Assembly: GCA_902760315.1 (NCBI GenBank)
Contig: CACWFV010000008.1
Coordinates: 14,212-78,211, forward strand
DNA: 64,000 nucleotides
Source: an uncultured Bacteroidales bacterium
GTDB lineage: Bacteria > Bacteroidota > Bacteroidia > Bacteroidales > Bacteroidaceae
Reading direction: 5' to 3'
Positions 5,113 to 38,642 of this stretch are shown here, in pieces (within the stretch, counting starts at the first letter, position 1; every line of letters starts with the position of its first letter). A model generated the notes under the pieces. It searched no databases, was not told the DNA's origin, and worked only from the letters and a program-made list of their open reading frames with translations. Both the position numbers and the translations under genes were made by a program.

Positions 5113-6033
5113 CTATCTTACCATGTTGTTAATACACTTTTTTAAAGAGTCAGTCCAATAGGGAATGATAAGCCCAAATGCTTGTTTGATTTTCGTTTTA
5201 TCTAGAACGGAATATGCTGGACGCTTAACCGGGCTTGGAAACTCATCGCTATGACAAGGCAATATTTCGCATTCGGTTGTACCCGCATACTCAGCAATCA
5301 TCTTCGTGAAGTCATACCAAGAACAGACACCTTCATTGCTGAAATGATAGATTCCATTCTTTGAATACAATGACCATTGATGATTATATTCTAAACATTC
5401 CTTCTTGTAATCATCAATTACTATTGCTATTGCTTTGGCGAGGTCTAATGCGTATGTTGGCGTACCAGCCTGGTCGAATACAACCTTAAGCTGTGGCTTT
5501 GTAGCCGTAAGGTTCAGCATCGTTTTCACGAAATTCTTGCCAAACTCCGAATACAACCAAGCTGTACGGAGTATCACATAGTTGCAATTTGTTGCGATAA
5601 TGCTTTGCTCACCGTGCAGCTTTGTCTTACCATATATCCCCGTTGGTGTTCCCTTTTGGTCCTCTTTGCAAGGAGTGTTATATGGTTCTCCTCCAAACAC
5701 ATAATCAGTAGAGACATGAATCAATAGGCCATTCACCTCCTTCACGGCAATAGCCAGATTCTTTGGTGCTTCTGCATTTAATTTCTCTGCCAATGCCTCA
5801 TTACTTTCAGCGGCATCTACATTTGTGTAGGCTGCACAGTTCACAATTATGTTGACATTCTGTTCTTTCACGAGGTTTCTGATGGCATCGAGGTCGGTAA
5901 TATCAAGTATTGTTGTATCTTGACCTTCCACCTCGACTACATCTGTAAAGATGTATTTGTCTTCTGAGTCTTTGGCAACGATACGCATTTCATTGCCAAG
6001 CTGACCATTGGCTCCTGTTACAAGTATATTCAT
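5113..6033 (-). CDS. rfbD: dTDP-4-dehydrorhamnose reductase
   Basis: GANGQLG, NCAAYTNVD, STDYVF and YGKTK motifs. Confidence 0.95.
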   Translation of the reverse strand: MNILVTGANGQLGNEMRIVAKDSEDKYIFTDVVEVEGQDTTILDITDLDAIRNLVKEQNVNIIVNCAAYTNVDAAESNEALAEKLNAEAPKNLAIAVKEVNGLLIHVSTDYVFGGEPYNTPCKEDQKGTPTGIYGKTKLHGEQSIIATNCNYVILRTAWLYSEFGKNFVKTMLNLTATKPQLKVVFDQAGTPTYALDLAKAIAIVIDDYKKECLEYNHQWSLYSKNGIYHFSNEGVCSWYDFTKMIAEYAGTTECEILPCHSDEFPSPVKRPAYSVLDKTKIKQAFGLIIPYWTDSLKKCINNMVR

Positions 6034-6035
6034 AA

Positions 6036-7181
6036 TTATCTATTGCTATATTGTAATTCATAATATTTTTGATAATCGCCTGAGGTGACGTTGTCGAGCC
6101 ACTCCTGATTGTCGAGATACCAGCGCACGGTCTTCTCAATGCCCTCCTCGAACTGGAGGCTGGGCTCCCAACTGAGTTCCTTCTGCAGCTTCGTTGAGTC
6201 AATGGCATAGCGCAGGTCATGACCGGCACGGTCGGTGACGTATGTTATCAGGTCCATGTCCTCACCCTCCTTGCGGCCAAGCAGACGGTCTACGGTGTTG
6301 ATGAGCACCTTGATGATGTCGATGTTCTTCCACTCATTGAAACCACCGATATTGTATGTGTCAGCAATCTTACCGTTGTGGAAGATGATGTCGATAGCAC
6401 GTGCATGGTCTACTACATAGAGCCAGTCGCGCACGTTCTCTCCCTTGCCATATACGGGCAGAGGCTTGCGGTGGCGGATATTGTTTATGAACAGCGGAAT
6501 CAGCTTCTCAGGGAACTGATAGGGACCGTAGTTATTTGAGCAGTTGGTGATGACCACGGGCATGCCATAGGTATCGTGGAAGGCACGCACGAAGTGATCG
6601 GAAGAAGCCTTCGAGGCTGAGTACGGAGAGTGAGGATTATACTTCGTGGTCTCCAGGAAGAACTTGTCACCGTAAGCTAAGTGGTGCTCTGCACTCGATG
6701 CCGTAGTAGTGAAAGGAGGCTCGATACCGTCGGGATGAGTCAGTTCCAGGGCTCCGTACACCTCGTCAGTAGAGATGTGATAGAAGCGCTTGCCCTCGTA
6801 CTTCTCAGGCAGGCTCTCCCAGTAGAGCTTGGCAGCCTGCAGCAGGCTCAGTGTACCCATCACGTTAGTGCGGGCAAAGGTGAACGGGTCCTTGATAGAG
6901 CGGTCTACATGGCTCTCTGCAGCCAGATGGATGATACCATCCACCTTCTTGTCCTGCATCAGCTGGTAGAAGGCATCGAAGTCGCAGATGTCCATCTTCA
7001 CAAACTCATAGTTGGGCTTGTCCTCAATGTCCTTGAGGTTTGCCAGGTTACCCGCATAGGTCAACTTGTCGAGGTTGATGATGCGATACTCGGGATACTT
7101 GTTCACGAAAAGGCGCACTACATGACTTCCTATAAAGCCCGCGCCGCCAGTAATTACAATCGTTCGTTTCATATTATTCAA
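6036..7181 (-). CDS. rfbB: dTDP-glucose 4,6-dehydratase
   Basis: [32 protein letters not shown] and YSASK motifs. Confidence 0.95.
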
Positions 7182-8080
7182 ATATTTGAACTACCCGTAC
7201 GTTTCAATTCTTCGATTACGTTCAATAGATACTGCCCATACTGATTTTTTAACATCGGCTGTGCCAATTGGCGCATCTTATCTTCATCTATCCACCCTTT
7301 TCGGTAGGCAATACCTTCAAGACAAGCAACTTTTAATCCCTGGCGCTTCTCTATAACCTCAATATAGGTTGATGCCTCTGCTAATGAGTCATGCGTTCCA
7401 GTGTCAAGCCATGCAAAACCTCTGCCCAGAGTCTGTACTTTCAGATTGCCAGCCTTCAAAAATTCTTGATTGACGGTTGTAATCTCTAATTCGCCACGAG
7501 CTGAAGGCTTGATATTCTTAGCAACTTCTACAACCTTATTTGGATAGAAATATAGGCCTACTACGGCATAGTTGCTTTTAGGTTTGGCCGGTTTTTCTTC
7601 TATACTAAGGCAATTCCCTTCTTTGTCAAACTCAGCTACGCCATAACGTTCCGGATCTGACACCCAATATCCAAAGACTGTTGCTTTATTATTCTGTTCT
7701 GCATCCTCAACTGCTTTCTTTAACAAAGCAGTAAATCCATTACCATTAAAAATGTTGTCGCCAAGCACTAAGCACGCTGAATCATTACCAATGAACTTTT
7801 CACCTATGATAAATGCCTGTGCCAATCCGTCAGGCGAAGGCTGTTCAGCATATTCAAAATTCACGCCATAGCTACTGCCGTCACCAAGAAGCCGTTTGAA
7901 TCCGGGTAGATCATCAGGCGTGGAGATAATCAGAATATCTCTGATACCTGCAAGCATCAACACTGAAATTGGATAATACACCATCGGTTTGTCAAAAATA
8001 GGAATCAACTGCTTAGAAATTCCTTTGGTAATAGGATACAACCTGGTACCACTGCCACCTGCTAAAACTATTCCTTTCAT
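7178..8080 (-). CDS. rfbA: Glucose-1-phosphate thymidylyltransferase
   Basis: [16 protein letters not shown] start at ATG 8080 (ORF track start 8110 is too long); [11 protein letters not shown] and WLDTGT motifs. Confidence 0.95.
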
Positions 8081-8092
8081 GATTATGATTTT

Positions 8093-8160
8093 AAAAGGGA
8101 GACAGGCCAATTGTTATTGAACTGTTGTCTTATGAGAGACCTGTGGTTATCCTGCCTCCC
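8093..8160 (-). promoter_or_regulatory. Stem-loop with short U-tract ahead of rfbA
   Basis: On the minus strand GGGAGGCAGG (8160-8151) pairs with CCTGTCTCCC (8106-8097, one G-U), then TTTT; 44-nt loop. Confidence 0.4.
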
Positions 8161-8239
8161 CATATTATTTTTTACTAACGCTGTTTCACGGCATGAACTA
8201 TAGATGTCTCTGTAAGAAGAGTGATGAAAATTCATCCTC

Positions 8240-8800
8240 CTACTTTTTATAAATAAATGGAGAATCGAAATCCTTTAATAAAGCATGCTTTGTGTCTTTC
8301 TCAGAAAGAATTGCATGTCCAGTAGGAATTCGCCAATCAATGCCAAGAGATTTATCAAGAATACTGATACCACCATCTGCCTCTGGATGATAGAATTCAT
8401 CACACTTATACTGGAAGACGGCAGTCTCAGACATCACAGCAAAGCCGTGAGCAAAACCTTTCGGAATAAAGAACTGACGATGGTTATCCTCAGTCAGCTC
8501 TACAGCCACATGCTGTCCGTAAGTAGGGCTACCCTTACGAATATCCACTGCCACATCGAGTACTGCACCCTTTACACAGCGCACCAACTTGCTCTGAGTA
8601 AATGGTGGCCGTTGGAAATGTAGTCCGCGCATGACACCATATGAAGATTTACTCTCGTTGTCCTGCACAAAGGTAATAGGACATACCTTCTCGCTGAATT
8701 CTCTTTGAGAAAAACTCTCAAAAAAATATCCCCTGCTGTCTTCGAAAATTCGTGGTTCTATGATTACCACGTCCTTAATAGATGTGTTAATTATATTCAT
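8240..8800 (-). CDS. rfbC: dTDP-4-dehydrorhamnose 3,5-epimerase (copy 1)
   Basis: DSRGYFFESF, RGLHFQ, DIRKGSPTYG and GFAHGF motifs. Confidence 0.95.
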   Translation of the reverse strand: MNIINTSIKDVVIIEPRIFEDSRGYFFESFSQREFSEKVCPITFVQDNESKSSYGVMRGLHFQRPPFTQSKLVRCVKGAVLDVAVDIRKGSPTYGQHVAVELTEDNHRQFFIPKGFAHGFAVMSETAVFQYKCDEFYHPEADGGISILDKSLGIDWRIPTGHAILSEKDTKHALLKDFDSPFIYKK

Positions 8801-10923: not shown

Positions 10924-11468
10924 AAGTCCTTATAGTATCAGTTTCAGTGTAAACACTGAAACCAGCAGTTATGTTAAACTTCCTTTAGAAGTGTATTTTT
11001 TTGTTTTCAGTTAACACTATAGGCTCTTTTGGCTCTCTCGGACTAAATCTTGACATGTCCGAAAAGCGTTTTTCCTCATCCCCCCCTCATTCTCTCATCC
11101 TTCAAAAGTACTCCCCCCATCTCACCGCTGTCCGTCCGTTAACATTTCTTCACACCGATTGCTTATAAAATCTTAACGCTATTGCCAGTTTGGGTAAAAA
11201 GTGCTATCTTTGTACTGGAAATGGCCAAAAAGGCCCAATTTCCCGGATGTCTGATGAATGTCTGATGAAACAGGAAACGGTGTTTCCGTTTTACATTGTG
11301 TATCAGGCTGTTATGCGGAAGTTCACATTAGCTGGGAAATCGTAAGATACTATATATATCATATCAACATCTATTATCAAATTAACTATAGTATAATATC
11401 ATCTTAAAAAGATTGAGCATAAAGGATCAAGGGAGACGGTGATTATTGATGTCTGATAGATGATGCTT

Positions 11469-11948
11469 TTATACCTCATAAGATTCCACAAACCGAAGAG
11501 CTCTGATTACTTTTTCGGTATGGAAGGACAGCTGATTGTAAGTTTTGTATGCTTTTAATCGAGCTATGGCGCTTTGAGCATCTAACACACCACTCTCGTA
11601 TAGATTAACAGTAACGAAAACATTATCGTTCGCTACGGGTCCAAAGACTAAATCATAGTCGTGTACTTGTCCCTTACGACAACCAACCACAAAATCCAAC
11701 CATGCGGCATCAACACCATGAAACTCCCTAATTCGTAATTCTGAATTTGCTAATAGTGCATCATCCACCTCGTAAACAGAGACTATCTTTTTTCCTGTCT
11801 TAGCTCTATCCAACTTTATCTCCGTCCACTTCTCAGCCTGTTCCTTCTGAGTAGTTGTATAGAAGCCCTTACCGAAATCTGTTTTATTACGTCCATAACG
11901 AAGACTCGGGTTACGGACCTCTACATTTGAGCCATGATATAACCTCAT
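11469..11948 (-). CDS. DUF3990 family protein (ADP-ribosyltransferase-like fold, putative toxin)
   Basis: MRLYHGS...DFGKGFYTT...YDLVFGPVAND...QLSFHT; ATGA overlap with the upstream partner gene. Confidence 0.8.
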   Translation of the reverse strand: MRLYHGSNVEVRNPSLRYGRNKTDFGKGFYTTTQKEQAEKWTEIKLDRAKTGKKIVSVYEVDDALLANSELRIREFHGVDAAWLDFVVGCRKGQVHDYDLVFGPVANDNVFVTVNLYESGVLDAQSAIARLKAYKTYNQLSFHTEKVIRALRFVESYEV

Positions 11949-12380
11949 TTTCTCTTTCTCCTATTAATGAAACGTTGGACCTCGTCAATCACATATTCGG
12001 TTCCTTGGGTATGGAGCATATCATAATGTTTAAGCAAGAACAAATCTGCATCATATTCTTTAAACAGAGCTAATGCCTGTAAGCCTCCGATACCTTTATG
12101 TAGTGCATACTTCTCCAAGGTATAAACAAAGAACTCGAATGCTTGTGGGGTAGTCTCAACCGCATGATGTTTACGCGTCTTCTCAAATTCTTCGTACAAA
12201 GCCTCGGAACTCATATACCACCATCTAGCCCCTTCGTTATAGAGTTCCTTATACATATCATTGGAATAAATATATGTAAGAGCCTCATCCAGGGAGATTC
12301 TTTTTTTCTCGGACACGTATTCTGCCAAACGGGCAACGGGCAACCTTAATCGGAATGATATTTTCTTCGTATACACCCAT
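11945..12380 (-). CDS. DUF3791-like partner protein, 5' end apparently frameshifted
   Basis: FL..HYDMLHTQGTEYVIDEV motif. ATG 12380 is in frame only if the 7-bp duplication at 12328-12341 is removed; GTG 12376 is in frame as it stands. Confidence 0.7.
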
Positions 12381-12393
12381 ACTTGCTTGCTTA

Positions 12394-12688
12394 AAACTAA
12401 TTGAGAATTGAAAAGTGATAATTGATAATTATTTCTTTTCGTCAGAAACTTTAAACTAATTGAGAATTGAAAAGTGATAATTGATAATCATTTCTTTTCG
12501 TCAGAAACTTTAAACTAATTGAGAATTGATAAGTGATAATTGATAATTATTTCTTTTCGTCAGAAACTTTAAACTAATTGAGAATTGAAAAGTGATAATT
12601 GATAATTATTTCTTTTCGTCAGAAACTTTAAACTAATTGAGAATTGAAAAGTGATAATTGATAATTATTCCTTTTCGTCAGAAGCCTT
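12394..12688. repeat. Tandem array, 5 x 59 bp
   Basis: Unit AAACTAATTGAGAATTGAAAAGTGATAATTGATAATTATTTCTTTTCGTCAGAAACTTT starts at 12394, 12453, 12512, 12571 and 12630. The last copy includes the stop codon and last codons of the four-helix-bundle gene. Confidence 0.97.
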
Positions 12689-13024
12689 AAGTTTCTTGAT
12701 AATTGAGGTTAAGAGCTTGATTAGCTCTGTACAATCCGCATTAATAGATGCATAATGTTCATCCGCAAGATAACCCGTCTCATGAAGGAGGTCAAGCCAG
12801 TATTCTGTCTCGTCTGCCTCTTTCAGAGCTATATTCAATTTGTTTAGGAAGTCCATGCGGCTTTGAGCATTCTTGCTCTCACGCGTATTCGCCCCAATGC
12901 TGGTTCCACATCTTAACAGTTGCTTTGACATTACACGCTCCTGTTTTTGTTCTGTCAAGAACTTATAACATCGTATGATTCTTATAGCAAAAACCTTACT
13001 CTTATCTTGTATCGCGTTAGCCAT
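12665..13024 (-). CDS. Four helix bundle protein FHB-1 (23S rRNA-IVP / TIGR02436 family)
   Basis: KQLLRCGTSIGANTRES...DFLNKLNIALKEADETEYWL; probable ATG at 13024. Confidence 0.9.
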   Translation of the reverse strand: MANAIQDKSKVFAIRIIRCYKFLTEQKQERVMSKQLLRCGTSIGANTRESKNAQSRMDFLNKLNIALKEADETEYWLDLLHETGYLADEHYASINADCTELIKLLTSIIKKLKASDEKE

Positions 13025-13056
13025 AATTGTCAATTATCAACTGTCAATTGTCAATT
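13025..13056. repeat. Heptamer array (AATTGAY on the coding strand) upstream of FHB-1
   Basis: AATTGTC AATTATC AACTGTC AATTGTC AATT; inverted match to 12635-12666 at 27/32 positions. Confidence 0.85.
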
Positions 13057-13714
13057 AATACATTGAAACATTGATATCGAATGGACTGTCAAAATCCTTG
13101 AGTAAGGCGTGTTTAGTGTCCTTTTCACTTAACAATGCTTTGTCTGTAGGTATACGCCAATCAATACCCAAACTATCATCTAAGATACTTATACCGCCAT
13201 CAGCCTCCGGATGATAGAACTCATCACACTTGTACTGGAACACTGCGGTCTCAGACAAAACAGCAAAGCCATGAGCAAAGCCACGTGGTACAAAGAACTG
13301 GCGGCCTACTTTAGCGGTTAGCGTTGAGCGGTTATCGGTTAGCGAATCATTATATTCTTTTGCAATTCGTTCACCTTCTTCATCATGTGCACATAGCAAG
13401 CATTCAACGTGCTGACCGTATGTGGGGCTTCCTTTGCGAATATCAACAGCTACATCAAGGACTGCTCCTTTGACACAACGAACAATTTTGCTCTGAGTGA
13501 ATGGAGGGCGTTGGAAATGCAATCCACGCATTACGCCATAGGTGGACATACTTTCGTTGTCTTGGACAAAGTTTATACTGTGTCCAAGTATAGGAGCTAC
13601 TTTCTCATCAAACTCTCGCTGAGAAAAGCTCTCGAAGAAATAGCCACGGGCATCCTCGAAAATGCGTGGTTCTATTATCACCACACCGTCTATGGCGGTT
13701 TTAATAACTTCCAT
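13055..13714 (-). CDS. rfbC: dTDP-4-dehydrorhamnose 3,5-epimerase (copy 2, with ~25-aa insertion)
   Basis: Same motifs as copy 1, plus an extra segment between GQHV and RQFF. Confidence 0.92.
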   Translation of the reverse strand: MEVIKTAIDGVVIIEPRIFEDARGYFFESFSQREFDEKVAPILGHSINFVQDNESMSTYGVMRGLHFQRPPFTQSKIVRCVKGAVLDVAVDIRKGSPTYGQHVECLLCAHDEEGERIAKEYNDSLTDNRSTLTAKVGRQFFVPRGFAHGFAVLSETAVFQYKCDEFYHPEADGGISILDDSLGIDWRIPTDKALLSEKDTKHALLKDFDSPFDINVSMY

Positions 13715-13730
13715 ACTTATATCGTTATGC

Positions 13731-13870
13731 GGTTATCGGTTATCGTTGCTCAGGATTGATGTTCTTAGCCCTGAGAGCGTATTTCGTTTGTTGGTTATTG
13801 GTTATCGTTGCTCAGGATTGATGTTCTTAGCCCTGAGAGCATATTTCGTTTATCGGTTATTGGTTATCGG
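13731..13870. repeat. Tandem repeat, ~2.25 x 62 bp, with internal hairpin and GGTTATY heptamers
   Basis: Units start at 13731, 13793 and 13855 (partial); each full unit has a CTCAGG...CCTGAG stem. Confidence 0.92.
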
Positions 13871-14240
13871 GTTTAGTATTCAAGATTGAAGTACGTAGGC
13901 CGGATAACATCTTTCCAATATCGATAATCTGAGGTTTTATATTCTTTACTTCTTCTTCAGTTATATAGTCTAAATCTGCCGCTGTTTCAAGCTCGCTATA
14001 TGTTTCCATGAGTGAGCCGTACGCCATATCTATGAAGTGAGCCTTATCTTTTGGGTGTTTTCTCCCGCTGCCTTCTGCGATATTTGCTTTTACAGATACT
14101 ACGGCTCGTCTTATCTGGCTGCAAAGAGCAAAGTTCTCAATTGCCGGAAGCTTATTTACAAGAACATATACATCCTTCACAAGTTGTCTTGCTGCCTTGT
14201 ATACTCTCAAGCCTTCAAACGAAAAGTCGTGACTCTCCAT
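13857..14240 (-). CDS. Four helix bundle protein FHB-2 (23S rRNA-IVP family)
   Basis: FEGLRVYK...ENFALCSQIRRAVVSVKANIAEGSGR...AYGSLMET motif. Confidence 0.92.
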   Translation of the reverse strand: MESHDFSFEGLRVYKAARQLVKDVYVLVNKLPAIENFALCSQIRRAVVSVKANIAEGSGRKHPKDKAHFIDMAYGSLMETYSELETAADLDYITEEEVKNIKPQIIDIGKMLSGLRTSILNTKPDNQ

Positions 14241-14265
14241 TGCGATAACCTATAACCGATAACCG

Positions 14266-14355
14266 TCAATCGTGAACCAGCGTCCCGCTGTTCACCTCTT
14301 CCTTCATCTCATCTATCACCTTCAGAAGGTACTGACCATATTGATTCTTCAACAT
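14266..14355 (-). pseudogene. rfbA: 3' remnant of a second rfbA
   Basis: Translates to [29 protein letters not shown], matching the intact RfbA C-terminus [18 protein letters not shown]. Confidence 0.85.
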
Positions 14356-14384
14356 GGACAGGGACGAGTCCCCTCTATTTCCGC

Positions 14385-15278
14385 TCATTTTTTCTTAGGT
14401 GAGAACTTCATACGGTCACCGATGAACAGGTTGAAGGCGGTCTTCAGTCTCTTTCCCTGGAGGTACGGCAGGTTGACATGATAGGCACTGGGCCAGAGAC
14501 AGATGGCTTTCGCTGCCATAATCTGAGCAATATGGTCCAATTTCTCCTTAAGTTCCGGGGAGTCCCAACGGGCACCGAAATACTGCTTGCCCATAGCTTC
14601 GTAGAATCGCGCCAGCTGGCTACGGTCCATGTGGAAAAGGTATTTCAACAGCGGATTGGGTCCCAGCTTCCCCATGTGCGACAGGATACTAAAGTCCAGT
14701 AGCGGGTCGCCATAGCCAAAGTCGCCTAAGTCTATCCAGTACACCTTGCCGCCAGCCATGATGATATTGCAAGGGTTGAGGTCGCCGTGCAGACAGGTGG
14801 TGGCCGGTTCCAGGGCATCGATATAACCAAACAGCCGTTCCTTGATGTCGTCTGGCAGTAGTTGGTTGTCGGCTATCATCGCACGCGTGTTCAAATTTAT
14901 ATTATTGTCAAAGACCTCCGTATCGCAGGGGATACTGTGCAGAGCCTTAGCGTACTCCGCTGTAATTCCGGCCAGTTCTTCGAGGCGTTCAGGGTGGTCG
15001 GCGATGATGCGTCCGAACGACTCTTTGCCCTGAATACGCTGGACAGTCATGCCGTAGCGCTCGCCGTCGGTGACGAACTCGTAGGGTTCTGCCGACGGGA
15101 TACCCATCTGGAACACAGCTTTGGAGCGTTGGAACTCCTCCCAAGCCTTCTCTTTCGTTACGCTAGGTTTGTTGAGTTTGAGGATGATGGAGTCGTCGGT
15201 CTTATGGAAGAAAGACTCCCCGAAGCCCCCACCACCAAACTGCGTCCAGTCTTGAAGATTGATACGGTTTGCTGTCAT
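14385..15278 (-). CDS. APH/kinase-like phosphotransferase family protein
   Basis: Gly-rich loop GGGGFGES, ILKL, CLHGDLNPCNI and WIDLGD motifs. Confidence 0.85.
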   Translation of the reverse strand: MTANRINLQDWTQFGGGGFGESFFHKTDDSIILKLNKPSVTKEKAWEEFQRSKAVFQMGIPSAEPYEFVTDGERYGMTVQRIQGKESFGRIIADHPERLEELAGITAEYAKALHSIPCDTEVFDNNINLNTRAMIADNQLLPDDIKERLFGYIDALEPATTCLHGDLNPCNIIMAGGKVYWIDLGDFGYGDPLLDFSILSHMGKLGPNPLLKYLFHMDRSQLARFYEAMGKQYFGARWDSPELKEKLDHIAQIMAAKAICLWPSAYHVNLPYLQGKRLKTAFNLFIGDRMKFSPKKK

Positions 15279-15438
15279 AATCAGAAGAAAAAAATATTTA
15301 TTTAGTTGCCTACATTGCCTACACTGGCACTTAAACCACTATGTTACAGCGCGTTACCAGGTGTAAGATGCGGTGTAAGATGTGTAGGATGGCTGGTGAA
15401 AGGGTGGGTTTTCGGGGGCAGGGCTGTGATTTTGGTAC

Positions 15439-17520
15439 CTATTTCTTCTGGCGCACCAGGTAGACTCTGTTGGCGGAGAGGCGCCTGCCGCGTATGCCAG
15501 GCATGTTGCTCAGGTAGCGGCCGAAGGCGCTGACACCCTTGGCGTTCAGTCCGCTGCCCGCCTTGCTGCGCAGGTAGTCGTAGATGGCTGTCGGCGAGAG
15601 CCACTCGCCCTCCGACTCGTCGTCGACGATGTCGTAGTATTCGTTGAAGTAGTAGACGGCAGTGGGCACCTGTTCGTACTGTCGGTTGTGCTCCATGACC
15701 TGCTTCACCTCGTCCGGTGTGAACCACCACTGCATCTTGTGTCGTCTGATGAGTGCGTAGGCCTGTCCGTAGAGTGCCTCGTAGTTAGGCTTGTAGGTCG
15801 TATTGACGGGTGCCGTCAGCTGTACGCAGATGAATCGGCGGTTGCCTGTGGGATCGCCCAGCACGCGCGTCTCGTTGGTAGTAGCTATGAACGACGCGTA
15901 GCGCTTGAACACCTCGACATGCTTGCCGTAGGGCCGCTTGATTTTGACGTTGGCCAGCTGGATGACGTTCTTCAGGAATCCTTGCTGAATCTTCGGACTT
16001 ATCTGGTTGAACTCGTCCAGGTTGATGAGCAGGAAGTTGTGCATGGCCTGCAGCGTCTGGCGCTTCTCCTTGATGTCCAGGTTCTCCTGGAAGCCCCAGT
16101 TCAGTTCCTTGGGCAGTATCATGCGGCAGAACGACGTCTTGCCGTCGCCCTGCGGCGATATGAGCAGCGGTACGATGGCGTTGCCGTAGTCCTGTTCAGG
16201 CAGCAGCCATTGCGCCACCATGGACACGAACCATTTGCGGAACCACTCCTCCCACTGCGGCAGGTTGCACGGCACGCAGCGTGCCAGCTGTCCGATGTGG
16301 TCAGTCTTGCCGTCCCACTTGTCTGACACGCGCAGCAGGAAGTCGGCCACCGGGTCGCACTCCGGAATCATGTTTGAGCGCACATAGCGGCGCACGTCCT
16401 TGTCGCGCACGTCCAGTCCGGCCAGGCGCGCCTCCAGCGTCATGCCGTTGACGACGTTTTCGTCGCAGGGCAACCAGTCCTGCACCCACGTGTTGTTGGG
16501 CCGGTATTCCGTATAGCCCATCACCGTATTGTACCTATATACATAGCGCGTCGTCAGGAATCGTATCAGTCGGCGCGTCTCCAGACTGGCCCCTGCACTC
16601 TCCTCGAAGCTGTGCGGCTGTTCCTCGGCAAACGATGCCGCCACGATAGCGCGCAGCGTCTCCTCCTGAAGCCCCTCGCGACGGCGATGGTGGTTGCGCA
16701 TGTGCAGGAACGCCTCCTCCTCCGGCACCCCCATGGCACACAGCCGGTGGGCCAGTTCCGTGAGATAAGCCTCCTGGCGCTGACTCCCGATGATGTCCTC
16801 CGTCTCGGCATAGGCCTCCTCCGCCGCCCGCTCATACATCTGCTCGTAGACGGCAAAGAGGTCGATGTCCGGTTCGCGCTGTTCGTGCTGTCGGCCCATG
16901 TCGGCGCTTGCGGCAGGAAACAACTGACTCGTGGAAATCTGCAGCGGCGTGGCAGCAGGGTTGTAGTATGGCTGCGCGTCCATTGTCATGCGCACGTTGT
17001 AGCGCGCCGACATCGGTTGGCGCTCAATGGGTTTGCCCAGTATGCCGCCATAAACGCCCATCGCCATTTCGTAGCCCACCTTGCAGAAGCGGTCCATCTC
17101 CTGTTCCGTCTGCGGCACCATGTCTTTCGACGCCACGGCCACCAGCACCTCTACACTTCTGCCGTCGGCGCCCATGAATGCCGCCACCGTCATGGGCAAC
17201 ATGCGTGCGGCCGCCTTGACCGCCTCAATGTCACCCTGTCGCAGCAGGCCGGCCACGTGCAGCGCCACCATGCCGTTGAATGCCGTCACCTCCAGCGTGC
17301 CCGTCGGCGACTTCGCCAGTTCCACCAGTGGATAGACCCTGGGCACGGGCGTCATGCTCTCGTATTGGCCCGTATCGCCAAATTCGGCCACATACTGGCG
17401 CAGTTTATCCACGCTGCCAGCCTTGGTGTCCGTCTGGATACGCTCAAAGAACCACTCCGCAGGCTTCACCGACAGGTGCGTGGTCTGCTGTTTGTCTATA
17501 TTGACGATGCTGAATTTCAT
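15439..17520 (-). CDS. VirE/VapE-family P-loop ATPase with BT4734-like (VirE_N) N-terminal domain
   Basis: RYNTVMG.TEY, WDGKTDHI, Walker A SPQGDGKTS, Walker B LINLDEF, RYASFIATTN and DPTGNRRF motifs. Confidence 0.88.
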   Translation of the reverse strand: MKFSIVNIDKQQTTHLSVKPAEWFFERIQTDTKAGSVDKLRQYVAEFGDTGQYESMTPVPRVYPLVELAKSPTGTLEVTAFNGMVALHVAGLLRQGDIEAVKAAARMLPMTVAAFMGADGRSVEVLVAVASKDMVPQTEQEMDRFCKVGYEMAMGVYGGILGKPIERQPMSARYNVRMTMDAQPYYNPAATPLQISTSQLFPAASADMGRQHEQREPDIDLFAVYEQMYERAAEEAYAETEDIIGSQRQEAYLTELAHRLCAMGVPEEEAFLHMRNHHRRREGLQEETLRAIVAASFAEEQPHSFEESAGASLETRRLIRFLTTRYVYRYNTVMGYTEYRPNNTWVQDWLPCDENVVNGMTLEARLAGLDVRDKDVRRYVRSNMIPECDPVADFLLRVSDKWDGKTDHIGQLARCVPCNLPQWEEWFRKWFVSMVAQWLLPEQDYGNAIVPLLISPQGDGKTSFCRMILPKELNWGFQENLDIKEKRQTLQAMHNFLLINLDEFNQISPKIQQGFLKNVIQLANVKIKRPYGKHVEVFKRYASFIATTNETRVLGDPTGNRRFICVQLTAPVNTTYKPNYEALYGQAYALIRRHKMQWWFTPDEVKQVMEHNRQYEQVPTAVYYFNEYYDIVDDESEGEWLSPTAIYDYLRSKAGSGLNAKGVSAFGRYLSNMPGIRGRRLSANRVYLVRQKK

Positions 17521-17549: not shown

Positions 17550-17688
17550 TGGGATTTTTTTCCCACGGCCTGGGACAAAAGTCCCACAGTTTGGGATTTT
17601 TTTCCCACGGCTTGGGACGAAAGTCCCATGGTTTGGGCCCGACGGAGACGCGTCGGGAACGGGGGCTGACGCGTCGGGAACGGGGGGC
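17550..17688. repeat. 21-bp-period palindromic repeat arrays
   Basis: Four TGGGA..TCCCA units in ABAB order (17550-17633), then GACGCGTCGGGAACGGGGG twice (17647 and 17668). Confidence 0.85.
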
Positions 17689-17708
17689 AGGAGCAGTCGG
17701 GGGGGATG

Positions 17709-24229: not shown

Positions 24230-25284
24230 AGTTGAATGGTTATCTGGACGTAATAGATGTTCTGGTCGTCAATGCCTTGCTGCCACGTATAGCGGTTGGG
24301 ATAGAGCAGCTGCAGGCGGCGTCGCGTATTCTCCAGTCCGATGCCTGAGCCGCTGCGGTTCTGCTCATCCTTAGGATAGTTGGTATTCCGGCAGCTGAAG
24401 GTCAGCTGTCTGCCGTCCGTATCCATATTGATGCGGACCATCGAGTCGCGGTTGTTGCTGACCCCATGCTTGAAGGCATTCTCGATGAGCGAGATGAAGA
24501 GCAGAGGAGCGATAGTTAATGGAGAATTGGCAATTGACAATTGACAATTGACCACGGTCTTCTCGCTACAGCGCAGCTTCATCAGCGCAATATAGTTTCT
24601 CATGAATTCCACCTCGCCACTGATGGGTACTGTCTTCTTATTAGTCTCGTACATGGCGTAACGCAGCAAGTCGCTCAGTTGGGCGATGGCATCCTGGGCT
24701 TTGTCGGCGTCAATCTGTACCAGACTGCTGATATTGTTCAGTGTGTTGAAGAGGAAGTGCGGGTTCAGCTGGTTCTTCAGCCACTCCAGTTCAGCCTCTG
24801 TGCGTTTCTGCTGTTCCTCCTTCAGTTGGCGCTTGATGGACTGTGAGCGATAGACATGGTGAGCCAGCAGCGCAATGCCAGCAAGCAGCGCACTCATGAA
24901 TACCGCCACCAGCGACGAGGCGTAATAGCTGCTCAATGCATACTGACGATAGTGGGCGTCGGGCACACGGCTCAAGAAAGTCTCCTGGTCGAAGAGGAAG
25001 AAGAAGATAAACACCTGATAGGCCAGTATCAGCGCATTGCCCAGCCAGAAGAGCCAGCGCCTGTTACGATAGTAGCCAAAGGGGATGAGCAGGAAAGAGT
25101 TGAGGAAGTATATGGCTGCCGAAATCCCGTGGATGCGGGCATTGATGTTGAAGGCCTGTAGCGAGCTGCTCCAGCTATGGGTGGTGATGAAGGCAGAGAT
25201 GGCTGGTACCATCAGGAATACCAGCCATGCTGCCACTTGCAGCCCGTAGAAGGTTATTTCTTGTCTGTTGATTTTCAGTTTCAT
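24226..25284 (-). CDS. LytS-type sensor histidine kinase
   Basis: TM helices; LKNQLNPHFLFNTLN, ENAFKHG and GIGLEN motifs. Confidence 0.93.
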   Translation of the reverse strand: MKLKINRQEITFYGLQVAAWLVFLMVPAISAFITTHSWSSSLQAFNINARIHGISAAIYFLNSFLLIPFGYYRNRRWLFWLGNALILAYQVFIFFFLFDQETFLSRVPDAHYRQYALSSYYASSLVAVFMSALLAGIALLAHHVYRSQSIKRQLKEEQQKRTEAELEWLKNQLNPHFLFNTLNNISSLVQIDADKAQDAIAQLSDLLRYAMYETNKKTVPISGEVEFMRNYIALMKLRCSEKTVVNCQLSIANSPLTIAPLLFISLIENAFKHGVSNNRDSMVRINMDTDGRQLTFSCRNTNYPKDEQNRSGSGIGLENTRRRLQLLYPNRYTWQQGIDDQNIYYVQITIQL

Positions 25285-38572: not shown

Positions 38573-38642
38573 GCGGAATACCGAGGCGGAATACCGGAAT
38601 ACCGAGGCGGAATACCGGAACACCGGAATACCGGAATACCGC
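38573..38642. repeat. GGAATACC octamer array
   Basis: Seven GGAAYACC units, two of them followed by GAGGC; begins right after the stop codon. Confidence 0.85.

Follow-up and report, generated by a model that had tools for sequence, protein, structure and literature searches.

Four-helix-bundle genes between inverted heptamer arrays in a Bacteroidales polysaccharide locus: a candidate mobile cassette without an enzyme of its own

Proteins of the four-helix-bundle (FHB) family PF05635/TIGR02436 are encoded in intervening sequences (IVSs) of 23S rRNA genes, as in Coxiella and Leptospira, and in Coxiella heptamers (GACAGAT) are found in the IVS stem that is cut by RNase III (PMC4990558). The fold is shared with Avd of the diversity-generating retroelements (DGRs), in which flipped-out bases are held in crevices between protomers, the same residues being used on them by all five (10.1101/2023.10.23.563531), and the family has been treated as uncharacterised or Avd-like (PMC10053308, 10.1101/2024.02.27.582315). 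Heptamer repeats, namely TAACTGA (PMC4679880) and GGGAATC and GGGGAYT (PMC4692102), have been given proposed roles in translation control or as G-quadruplexes. A four-helix-bundle gene is not mentioned in the main text of these last two papers and, in a literature search that left most subscription papers outside, the family was not found linked to inverted heptamer arrays outside rRNA. Here we analyse a stretch of 64,000 nucleotides (the window; contig CACWFV010000008.1, positions 14,212 to 78,211) from an uncultured Bacteroidales bacterium, in which two genes of this family, FHB-1 and FHB-2, each lie between inverted arrays of their own heptamer. The resulting cassette is a real and widespread element, neither an rRNA IVS nor a DGR. 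We give a probability of roughly one half to the reading that it is a selfish cassette without an enzyme, the pentameric protein of which binds the DNA of both arms and gives rise to arrays by way of host repair.

The profile scores of FHB-1 and FHB-2 (93.3 and 116.5 bits against a cut-off of 33.8, and 112.3 and 110.2 against 24 with a second model set, PF05635/TIGR02436) placed both genes in the family to which an earlier note, made from the letters of this DNA alone, had assigned them. Each cassette is ~0.45 kb long, and the PF05635 gene is the sole open reading frame (ORF) between its arms, no transposase being encoded. Their neighbours are rml genes, not rRNA, and an Rfam scan of 11000-16000 gave no match. 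The inversion of the FHB-1 arms was confirmed with a match of 27/32, three of the five mismatches falling on the last base of the unit and the other two being adjacent in unit 3; the FHB-1 ATG is at 13022-13024. For FHB-2, the 5' array previously described as about five units is made of ~3.3 clean units, the two further units (to 14278) being degenerate and lying over the last codons of the rfbA remnant, and the inverted 3' copies are present as stated, with the qualification that they extend into the final codons of the FHB-2 ORF. Over their 23 nt, the arms of FHB-2 are 91% complementary. Both cassettes do begin at rml stop codons, those of rfbC copy 2 (13055-13057) and of the rfbA remnant (14266-14268) lying at the starts of the 5' arms. 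The rfbA-remnant context recurs at two of the compared loci (L196 and L197; loci and genomes are numbered L and G hereafter, G000 being the genome of the window), and among named relatives those closest to FHB-1 come from rumen Prevotellaceae/Bacteroidales.

The survey covered 61 genomes of the order, from which 113 loci were taken out of ~205 matches. The distribution of the family was patchy, with matches above the cut-off in 42 of the 61 genomes. An inverted-repeat score of at least 14 was obtained for 80 of the 111 family genes with sufficient flank, against 8 of 1939 other genes of G000, and period 7 was dominant in the flanks. After addition of relatives of both proteins, which gave 309 distinct full-length genes in a sample skewed to Bacteroidales and to the FHB-1 subfamily, the inverted flanks anticipated for homologues were found at 248 genes, including 87 of the 96 in the last-fetched set. 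The inverted arms at family genes are not due to chance. Both arms were periodic in 232 genes (164 with period 7, 53 with period 8, nine with period 10 and six with other periods), and a unit number near five, as expected from the window, was borne out by 4-5 units in 112 of 164 5' arms and 126 of 164 3' arms. Some FHB-2 relatives were exceptions, with 3'-type arrays on both flanks (L204, L206-L208). Among eight plasmid loci fetched from 24 records, six had inverted arms, five of them cyanobacterial and one within an Azospirillum 23S rRNA gene (L454).

The position of the cassettes varies. A set of 123 loci fell into 79 site clusters, and eleven FHB-1 relatives (66-92% identical), with the words TGANAAT or TGACAGT, were located at no fewer than eight different gene pairs. 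The 5' array started within -12 to +6 nt of the upstream stop codon in 72/144 loci. The junctions of 234 genes were examined; both neighbours could be called for 172 of them, which gave 33 adjacent gene pairs in G000, and the empty sites that had been looked for, here junctions lacking the gene, were found at 32 of these 33 orthologous junctions as well as at all eight other rfbA-rfbC junctions. The junction 3' of rfbC occurred in several states, namely with the full FHB-1 cassette (window), with a solo FHB-1-type 3' arm (L195), with solo FHB-2-type arms (L198, L211, L213, L224) and without an array (L194, L202). Contigs compared at G000:C15 for strain alleles without arrays gave nothing usable. 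Two joints, 12548-13032 and 12553-13028, were considered as excision products and rejected, because their sides comprise only 21-24 letters inside the arms and thus represent arrays of other organisms; among the contig joints listed, none removed a cassette.

The 94 period-7 words share the frame K-N-A-N-A-R-K, with an information of 4.0 compared to 2.70 +/- 0.07 for letter-shuffled words. The words and their periods (7, 8 or 10) cluster by protein clade, and word similarity declines with protein identity, pairs at different sites included. In different-site pairs with at least 70% identity, the words were equal within one base in 36 of 38, as compared to 2% of 1453 pairs with less than 30% identity, so that the proposed tracking of protein clades by words holds even at different sites. 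Since gene and word travel together, single residues were tested. On independent pairs from a FastTree tree, for which 14 traits were tried, residue 52 was associated with word position 2, both as Asn with G (11/0, family-wise p 0.006) and as an aromatic residue (F/Y) with A (11/0, family-wise p 0.015), a basic residue 103 with a pyrimidine at position 4 (14/0, p 0.001) and residue 3 with position 6 (13/1, p 0.026). The raw counts for 133 subfamily members were 36/50 for Asn52 with G, 32/41 for Phe/Tyr with A and 17/22 for Arg with C. An IQ-TREE tree built without the tested columns and used with random pairings again gave Asn52-G (9.6/0, family-wise p 0.013), residues 103 and 106 being borderline (p 0.035-0.11). 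In a held-out test on 55 later-fetched rows, less than 70% identical to the training rows, position 2 was predicted best by residue 52 among 115 columns (35 correct, against 28 for the nearest neighbour and 16 for the majority), residue 3 was the best for position 6 (40 against 35) and residue 106 the best for position 4 (49). The residue-52 pattern was followed by both arms. The residue-3 link could arise from the array running into the codon; just 3 of 64 Asn codons are in array phase. No residue was associated with period 7 as opposed to 8, or with word positions 1, 3, 5 and 7. A residue-to-base code is thus moderately supported by sequence comparison, most strongly at residue 52.

Arrays were also found without a gene. 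G000 has three full family genes but 149 period-7 arrays, as compared to 14 of period 6 and 61 of period 8, with lengths peaking at 32-35 nt. The cassette word frame fits 110 of the 149, against 35% of shuffled words, the two commonest array words are those of two resident family genes, and several gene-free arrays are arranged as inverted pairs. Those starting at a stop codon are preferentially of the 5' type on the sense strand (34:11), and stop codons are contained in 63 of 94 5'-type words and 26 of 94 3'-type words. Of 51 extra arrays in the vicinity of family genes, 24 have the local word, where 4.6 were expected (18 loci, some sites of which may be shared), and among 36 congeners the genomes with the cognate gene are rich in its word. 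Called ORFs of at least 250 amino acids contain 31 arrays, mostly stop-free 3'-type runs, although some of the ORF extensions are probably spurious. The in-frame comparison comprised 51 rows, from which self-matches and cases with poor flanks, a wrong frame or arrays in both genomes were dropped by eye; net insertions of 8-21 residues were seen in 8 of 10 non-self cases, and the idea that all in-frame arrays are same-length overwrites was rejected on this basis. In the sensor-kinase-like gene of the window, the segment with the array measures 40 amino acids in 18 of 20 homologues and 39 in the other two, and in nine homologues, as judged by eye, the same codons are occupied by complete or partial arrays, several words being represented. 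A glycosidase-like gene is a second such same-codon case. One array (C52) first taken as lying in a gene is ahead of the real start, and L399 had no homologue in 70 genomes.

The model of FHB-1, with four helices and a predicted local distance difference test score (pLDDT) of 95, reached a template-modelling (TM) score of ~0.9 to 2RLD and superposed on this pentameric structure with a root-mean-square deviation of 0.5-0.8 Å, and more distantly on Avd. The pentameric relatives mentioned in the earlier note were recovered, 2RLD and 2GSC having five chains each, and these chains, together with PMC4990558, suggest that the FHB proteins are homopentamers. The predicted five-subunit ring would likely bind one unit per subunit, by analogy with the Avd crevices that take flipped bases, and a ring that reads its own word is suggested by the frame common to the words, by the number of units and by the associations of residues with bases. 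Recognition would probably concern a DNA strand at either end, given that the word is maintained on opposite strands in the two arms and that their pairing is not selected. As the cassette encodes no nuclease, recombinase or polymerase, the chemistry is attributed to host functions, and host repair enzymes would likely copy arms or whole cassettes into new places, a varying number of host bases being lost. Survivorship may largely account for the location at stop codons and in tolerant loops, because a stop codon is usual in 5'-type words and usually absent from 3'-type words, and the promoterless gene would be expressed from the host operon. The earlier note had set a mobile cassette and a ring reading protein-specific words against each other; both look right, and rather than being alternatives they belong together.

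Several observations weigh against such a self-recognising DNA cassette. Binding, excision and insertion were not observed, and we infer both binding and movement. Among the loci compared there was no near-identical pair of filled and empty alleles and no same-species pair; filled and empty sites belong to different species, and a target-site duplication was not seen by eye at nine junctions. Solo arrays were weakly enriched at junctions that are filled in relatives (10/32 against 138/1011), with p=0.01 at one of four thresholds and p=0.14 in a rank test. Arrays may outlive the gene or not need it, since word-rich genomes often lack the cognate gene among the fetched loci: of six genomes with at least nine AATTGAN matches just three have it, one genome that is 99% complete (G018) has nine such matches and no family match, and two of nine ARTGAAG-rich genomes have their cognate gene. 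As to the code, the best association is at p ~0.1 once corrected for eight traits, and well-supported branches alone leave 2-6 independent pairs, in the expected direction but none significant. Residue 3 is not significant on the IQ-TREE tree, residue 103 failed the held-out test (34/55 against a majority of 35), and the columns were chosen on data that included the held-out rows. Avd, moreover, binds RNA, at an end that, judged by topology, may be opposite to residues 3 and 52. Finally, a small in-register excess between arms (2556 against 2523 +/- 12, p 0.005-0.04, ~1% of positions) leaves room for some pairing or mirror copying.

This last point concerns the RNA stem that had been proposed at the outset, in which the arms pair in the transcript, RNase III excises the cassette from the mRNA and the protein stabilises or gates the stem. 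The same design is indeed found inside a real 23S rRNA gene (L454) and between tRNA genes (L029, L104, L110), heptamers occur in the RNase III-cut stem of Coxiella (PMC4990558), and the assigned upstream genes were co-oriented in all flanks inspected, although the assignment was to the same strand by construction. In the predicted ensemble, the FHB-2 arms pair (20.5 expected pairs) whereas the FHB-1 arms do not (0.006). Selection for a stem was not apparent in the paired arm columns, which have no G-U bias (G-U 175 against A-C 152, p=0.22), nor in duplex strength, the sense duplex being stronger than the antisense one in 76/148, and the free word position is not paired between arms (mismatch 0.24, against 0.27 and 0.22 within arms). 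A 1771-nt RNA-library contig from a related strain, which may derive from DNA, crosses both FHB-2 arms and the ORF without excision. Judged from these sequence measures, the pairing of the arms does not appear to be under selection as RNA; most simply, the word would be maintained separately at each end, on that end's own strand, as in transposon ends. Because the FHB-1 arms are also predicted to be unpaired, the RNase III stem appears as the weaker half of the first reading, and we consider it unlikely.

TRAP (trp RNA-binding attenuation protein) is a ring that binds short RNA repeats of one fixed word and has a ligand switch. A host regulator of this kind, in which the FHB ring would bind 5'-type mRNA arrays, control translation or stability of many operons and autoregulate its own gene, would be consistent with the sense-strand bias of solo arrays that start at stop codons and often span the interval up to the following start, and with the position-specific variation kept in solo arrays; such a network was proposed for TAACTGA repeats by MacGregor in 2015 (PMC4679880). 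A purely TRAP-like reading of RNA, the other half of the first proposal, leaves the 3' arm unexplained, as this arm and most in-frame arrays carry the word on the antisense strand only. The patchiness of the gene, the dozens of unrelated sites, the many words and the persistence of arrays without a cognate gene are further difficulties, and this regulator too is improbable.

The fold shared with Avd raises the question of whether the ring, as a reverse transcriptase (RT) cofactor would, holds array RNA as a template that a host or co-resident polymerase uses to put cDNA of the array, or the cassette as a whole, into DNA. Same-length arrays with different words on the same codons, in the kinase-like and glycosidase-like genes, resemble patch replacement, and tandem copies of gene tail plus arm occur at 3 of 205 family loci, FHB-1 being one of them, and at none of 496 controls. 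However, the other in-frame cases are mostly net insertions, and the junctions of the tail tandems carry microhomology, which fits slippage; being rare and bounded in this way, they were rejected as a retro-copy signature. The Avd models remained below their cut-offs for FHB-2 (PF22296 31.3 against 40, NF033474 38 against 80), with no match listed for FHB-1, and the DGR parts (RT, template repeat and variable repeat) are absent beside the FHB genes. The sole RT-like gene found in the 85%-complete genome, a weak candidate far from the cassettes, is the only RVT_1 match, a 430-aa ORF among phage-like genes on another contig (G000:C1:32488-33780; L450:989-2281). The word adenines are conserved and not mutagenised, and an RT cofactor appears rather unlikely.

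Capsule loci recombine freely, and since word and gene travel together their clade association needs no binding, but ordinary slippage repeats hitchhiking with a small gene moved by recombination, whose protein would not recognise them, are a very unlikely explanation, as they predict neither the inversion of the two ends, the mode of 4-5 units and the shared word frame with one free position, nor the residue associations in mid-gene and the frame-keeping word changes in coding sequence. A period-7 excess as such is known in bacteria (PMC4692102).

The features of the window are listed in Table 1. The two tandems of gene tail and 3' arm and the in-frame array of rfbC copy 2 go beyond the earlier note. 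The first copy of the 59-bp tandem is the end of the FHB-1 gene itself, and the copy number was not confirmed by contigs; the 62-bp tandem has one copy fewer in an RNA-library contig.

Table 1. Coordinates of the cassettes, arrays and host genes in the window
Feature	Coordinates	Strand	Description
Tandem of 59 bp, x5.1	12390..12690	-	Unit of final ~20 nt of FHB-1 gene plus 3' arm
FHB-1 3' arm	12634..12666	+	Word on opposite strand, 4.7 copies (Tandem Repeats Finder); begins at FHB-1 stop
FHB-1 gene	12665..13024	-	119 aa, PF05635/TIGR02436; 64% identical to pentameric BT_0352 (2RLD)
FHB-1 5' arm	13025..13056	-	~4.6 TGAYAAT-type units (Tandem Repeats Finder); from rfbC stop to FHB-1 ATG
rfbC/rmlC copy 2	13055..13714	-	Host gene separating the two cassettes
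Solo array, FHB-2 word family	13311..13344	-	In frame, in a loop of rfbC copy 2
Tandem of 62 bp, x2.5	13718..13869	-	Tail of another FHB-2 allele (L196/L211-like) plus 3' arm
FHB-2 3' arm	13846..13870	+	3.6 copies (Tandem Repeats Finder); overlaps last FHB-2 codons
FHB-2 gene	13857..14240	-	127 aa, PF05635/TIGR02436; nearer XCC0516 (2GSC); weak bAvd match under cut-off
FHB-2 5' arm	14243..14278	-	TTATCGG type; 3.3 clean units at 14243-14265 plus two degenerate units over rfbA tail
rfbA 3' remnant	14266..14355	-	~30 codons; stop begins FHB-2 arm
Solo array, FHB-1 word family	24525..24552	-	In frame in sensor-kinase-like gene; length unchanged relative to homologues

A second complete rml set (rfbC, rfbA, rfbB, rfbD) is located 4 kb downstream, at 5113-8800, and its rfbC is devoid of the ~25-residue loop that carries the array in copy 2. 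Directly after the FHB-1 tandem lies a DUF3990-DUF3791 gene pair (11469-12376), near the DUF3791 start of which AACGGGC is repeated 2.4 times (12328-12344); the window has one 7-nt unit more than the contigs of all four runs, and which of the DUF3791 start codons lies in frame is shifted by this unit. A TIGR02172-like phosphotransferase at 14385-15278, upstream of the rfbA remnant, scored 222.5 bits, just below the cut-off, the aminoglycoside-kinase models staying far below theirs. Tandem Repeats Finder also reported a period-21/42 array at 17550-17701 and a period-8/21 array at 38573-38641, the latter of which may belong to the same array family as a period-8 member. The FHB-1 arrays contain six sites that resemble sigma-70 promoters (10/12), which were discarded as a by-product of this one word; other words do not fit, and promoters of Bacteroidota differ.

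Elsewhere in G000, a third full cassette with a GAAGAAT word was found at G000:C37:43620-45317, a gene-free inverted pair of the same word lying 1 kb upstream, and at its junction four relatives (L013, L018, L021, L023) hold distant family genes with other periods. The entire cassette is duplicated in tandem at L083, and two cyanobacterial plasmid cassettes are inserted in CRISPR-cas operons, between cas6 and cas4 and between cas10 and cmr3 (L451, L453). At L129:3107-3220, the gene next downstream of a cassette has an in-frame insert of ~39 residues, formed by an inverted array pair of the cassette's word with a short spacer. Viral contigs were unmatched by the FHB-1 patterns, phage records gave two partial matches, and the GxxExxY family PF13366 was not found in this genome.

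If the selfish DNA cassette is real, the 7-base repeats of many bacteria, so far unexplained, would have a source, and two open questions would be joined, that of the role of the common four helix bundle/S23 proteins and that of the excess of 7-base repeats in bacteria. Its spread without a nuclease or recombinase of its own, with in-frame patches left in host genes, would represent a novel way in which bacterial sequences change, and a ring that reads five short units, with a clade-specific word determined by a few residues, would amount to a compact, possibly reprogrammable reader of nucleic acids. A bolder generalisation, which we put forward only tentatively, is that PF05635 cassettes form a selfish class without an enzyme, in which a pentamer that has an amino-acid-to-base code and accommodates five heptamers guides polymerase or repair functions of the host, or possibly an RT as Avd does, in writing the word into chromosomes, even over codons; they would then be the source of much of the heptamer excess, of in-frame patches and of ORF-bearing rRNA IVSs.

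REP-RAYT elements, miniature transposable elements with inverted repeats (MITEs) and Rickettsia palindromic elements are transposase-dependent or long palindromes. The cassette resembles them in its many gene-free and few gene-bearing copies and its in-frame protein inserts, and it has terminal inverted repeats like an insertion sequence or a MITE, but it does not encode any known catalytic domain, and tandem arrays form its ends. As in TRAP, a ring would read one short repeat per subunit, the 4-5 units matching the probable pentamer, whereas fold and ring size differ and the cassette words are many, clade-specific and on both strands. The repeats TAACTGA, GGGAATC and GGGGAYT (PMC4679880, PMC4692102) are likewise intergenic 7-mer arrays near starts and stops, with inverted pairs, some in frame, in the same phyla. 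With DGR Avd the cassette protein would share the pentameric four-helix barrel, but the target of Avd is a stem-loop (10.1101/2023.10.23.563531) and that of the cassette protein would be a tandem array. The 23S rRNA IVS has the same protein family and an ORF between complementary inverted arms (PMC4990558), which are also periodic in the Azospirillum IVS, and it differs from the cassettes of the window in that these lie in a polysaccharide operon, without any sign of selection on an RNA stem, at many sites and with gene-free arrays genome-wide. The 23S IVS looks like one landing site of a wider element, and the cassette is best filed with the ORF-bearing IVS design, to which a plausible self-recognition code is added.

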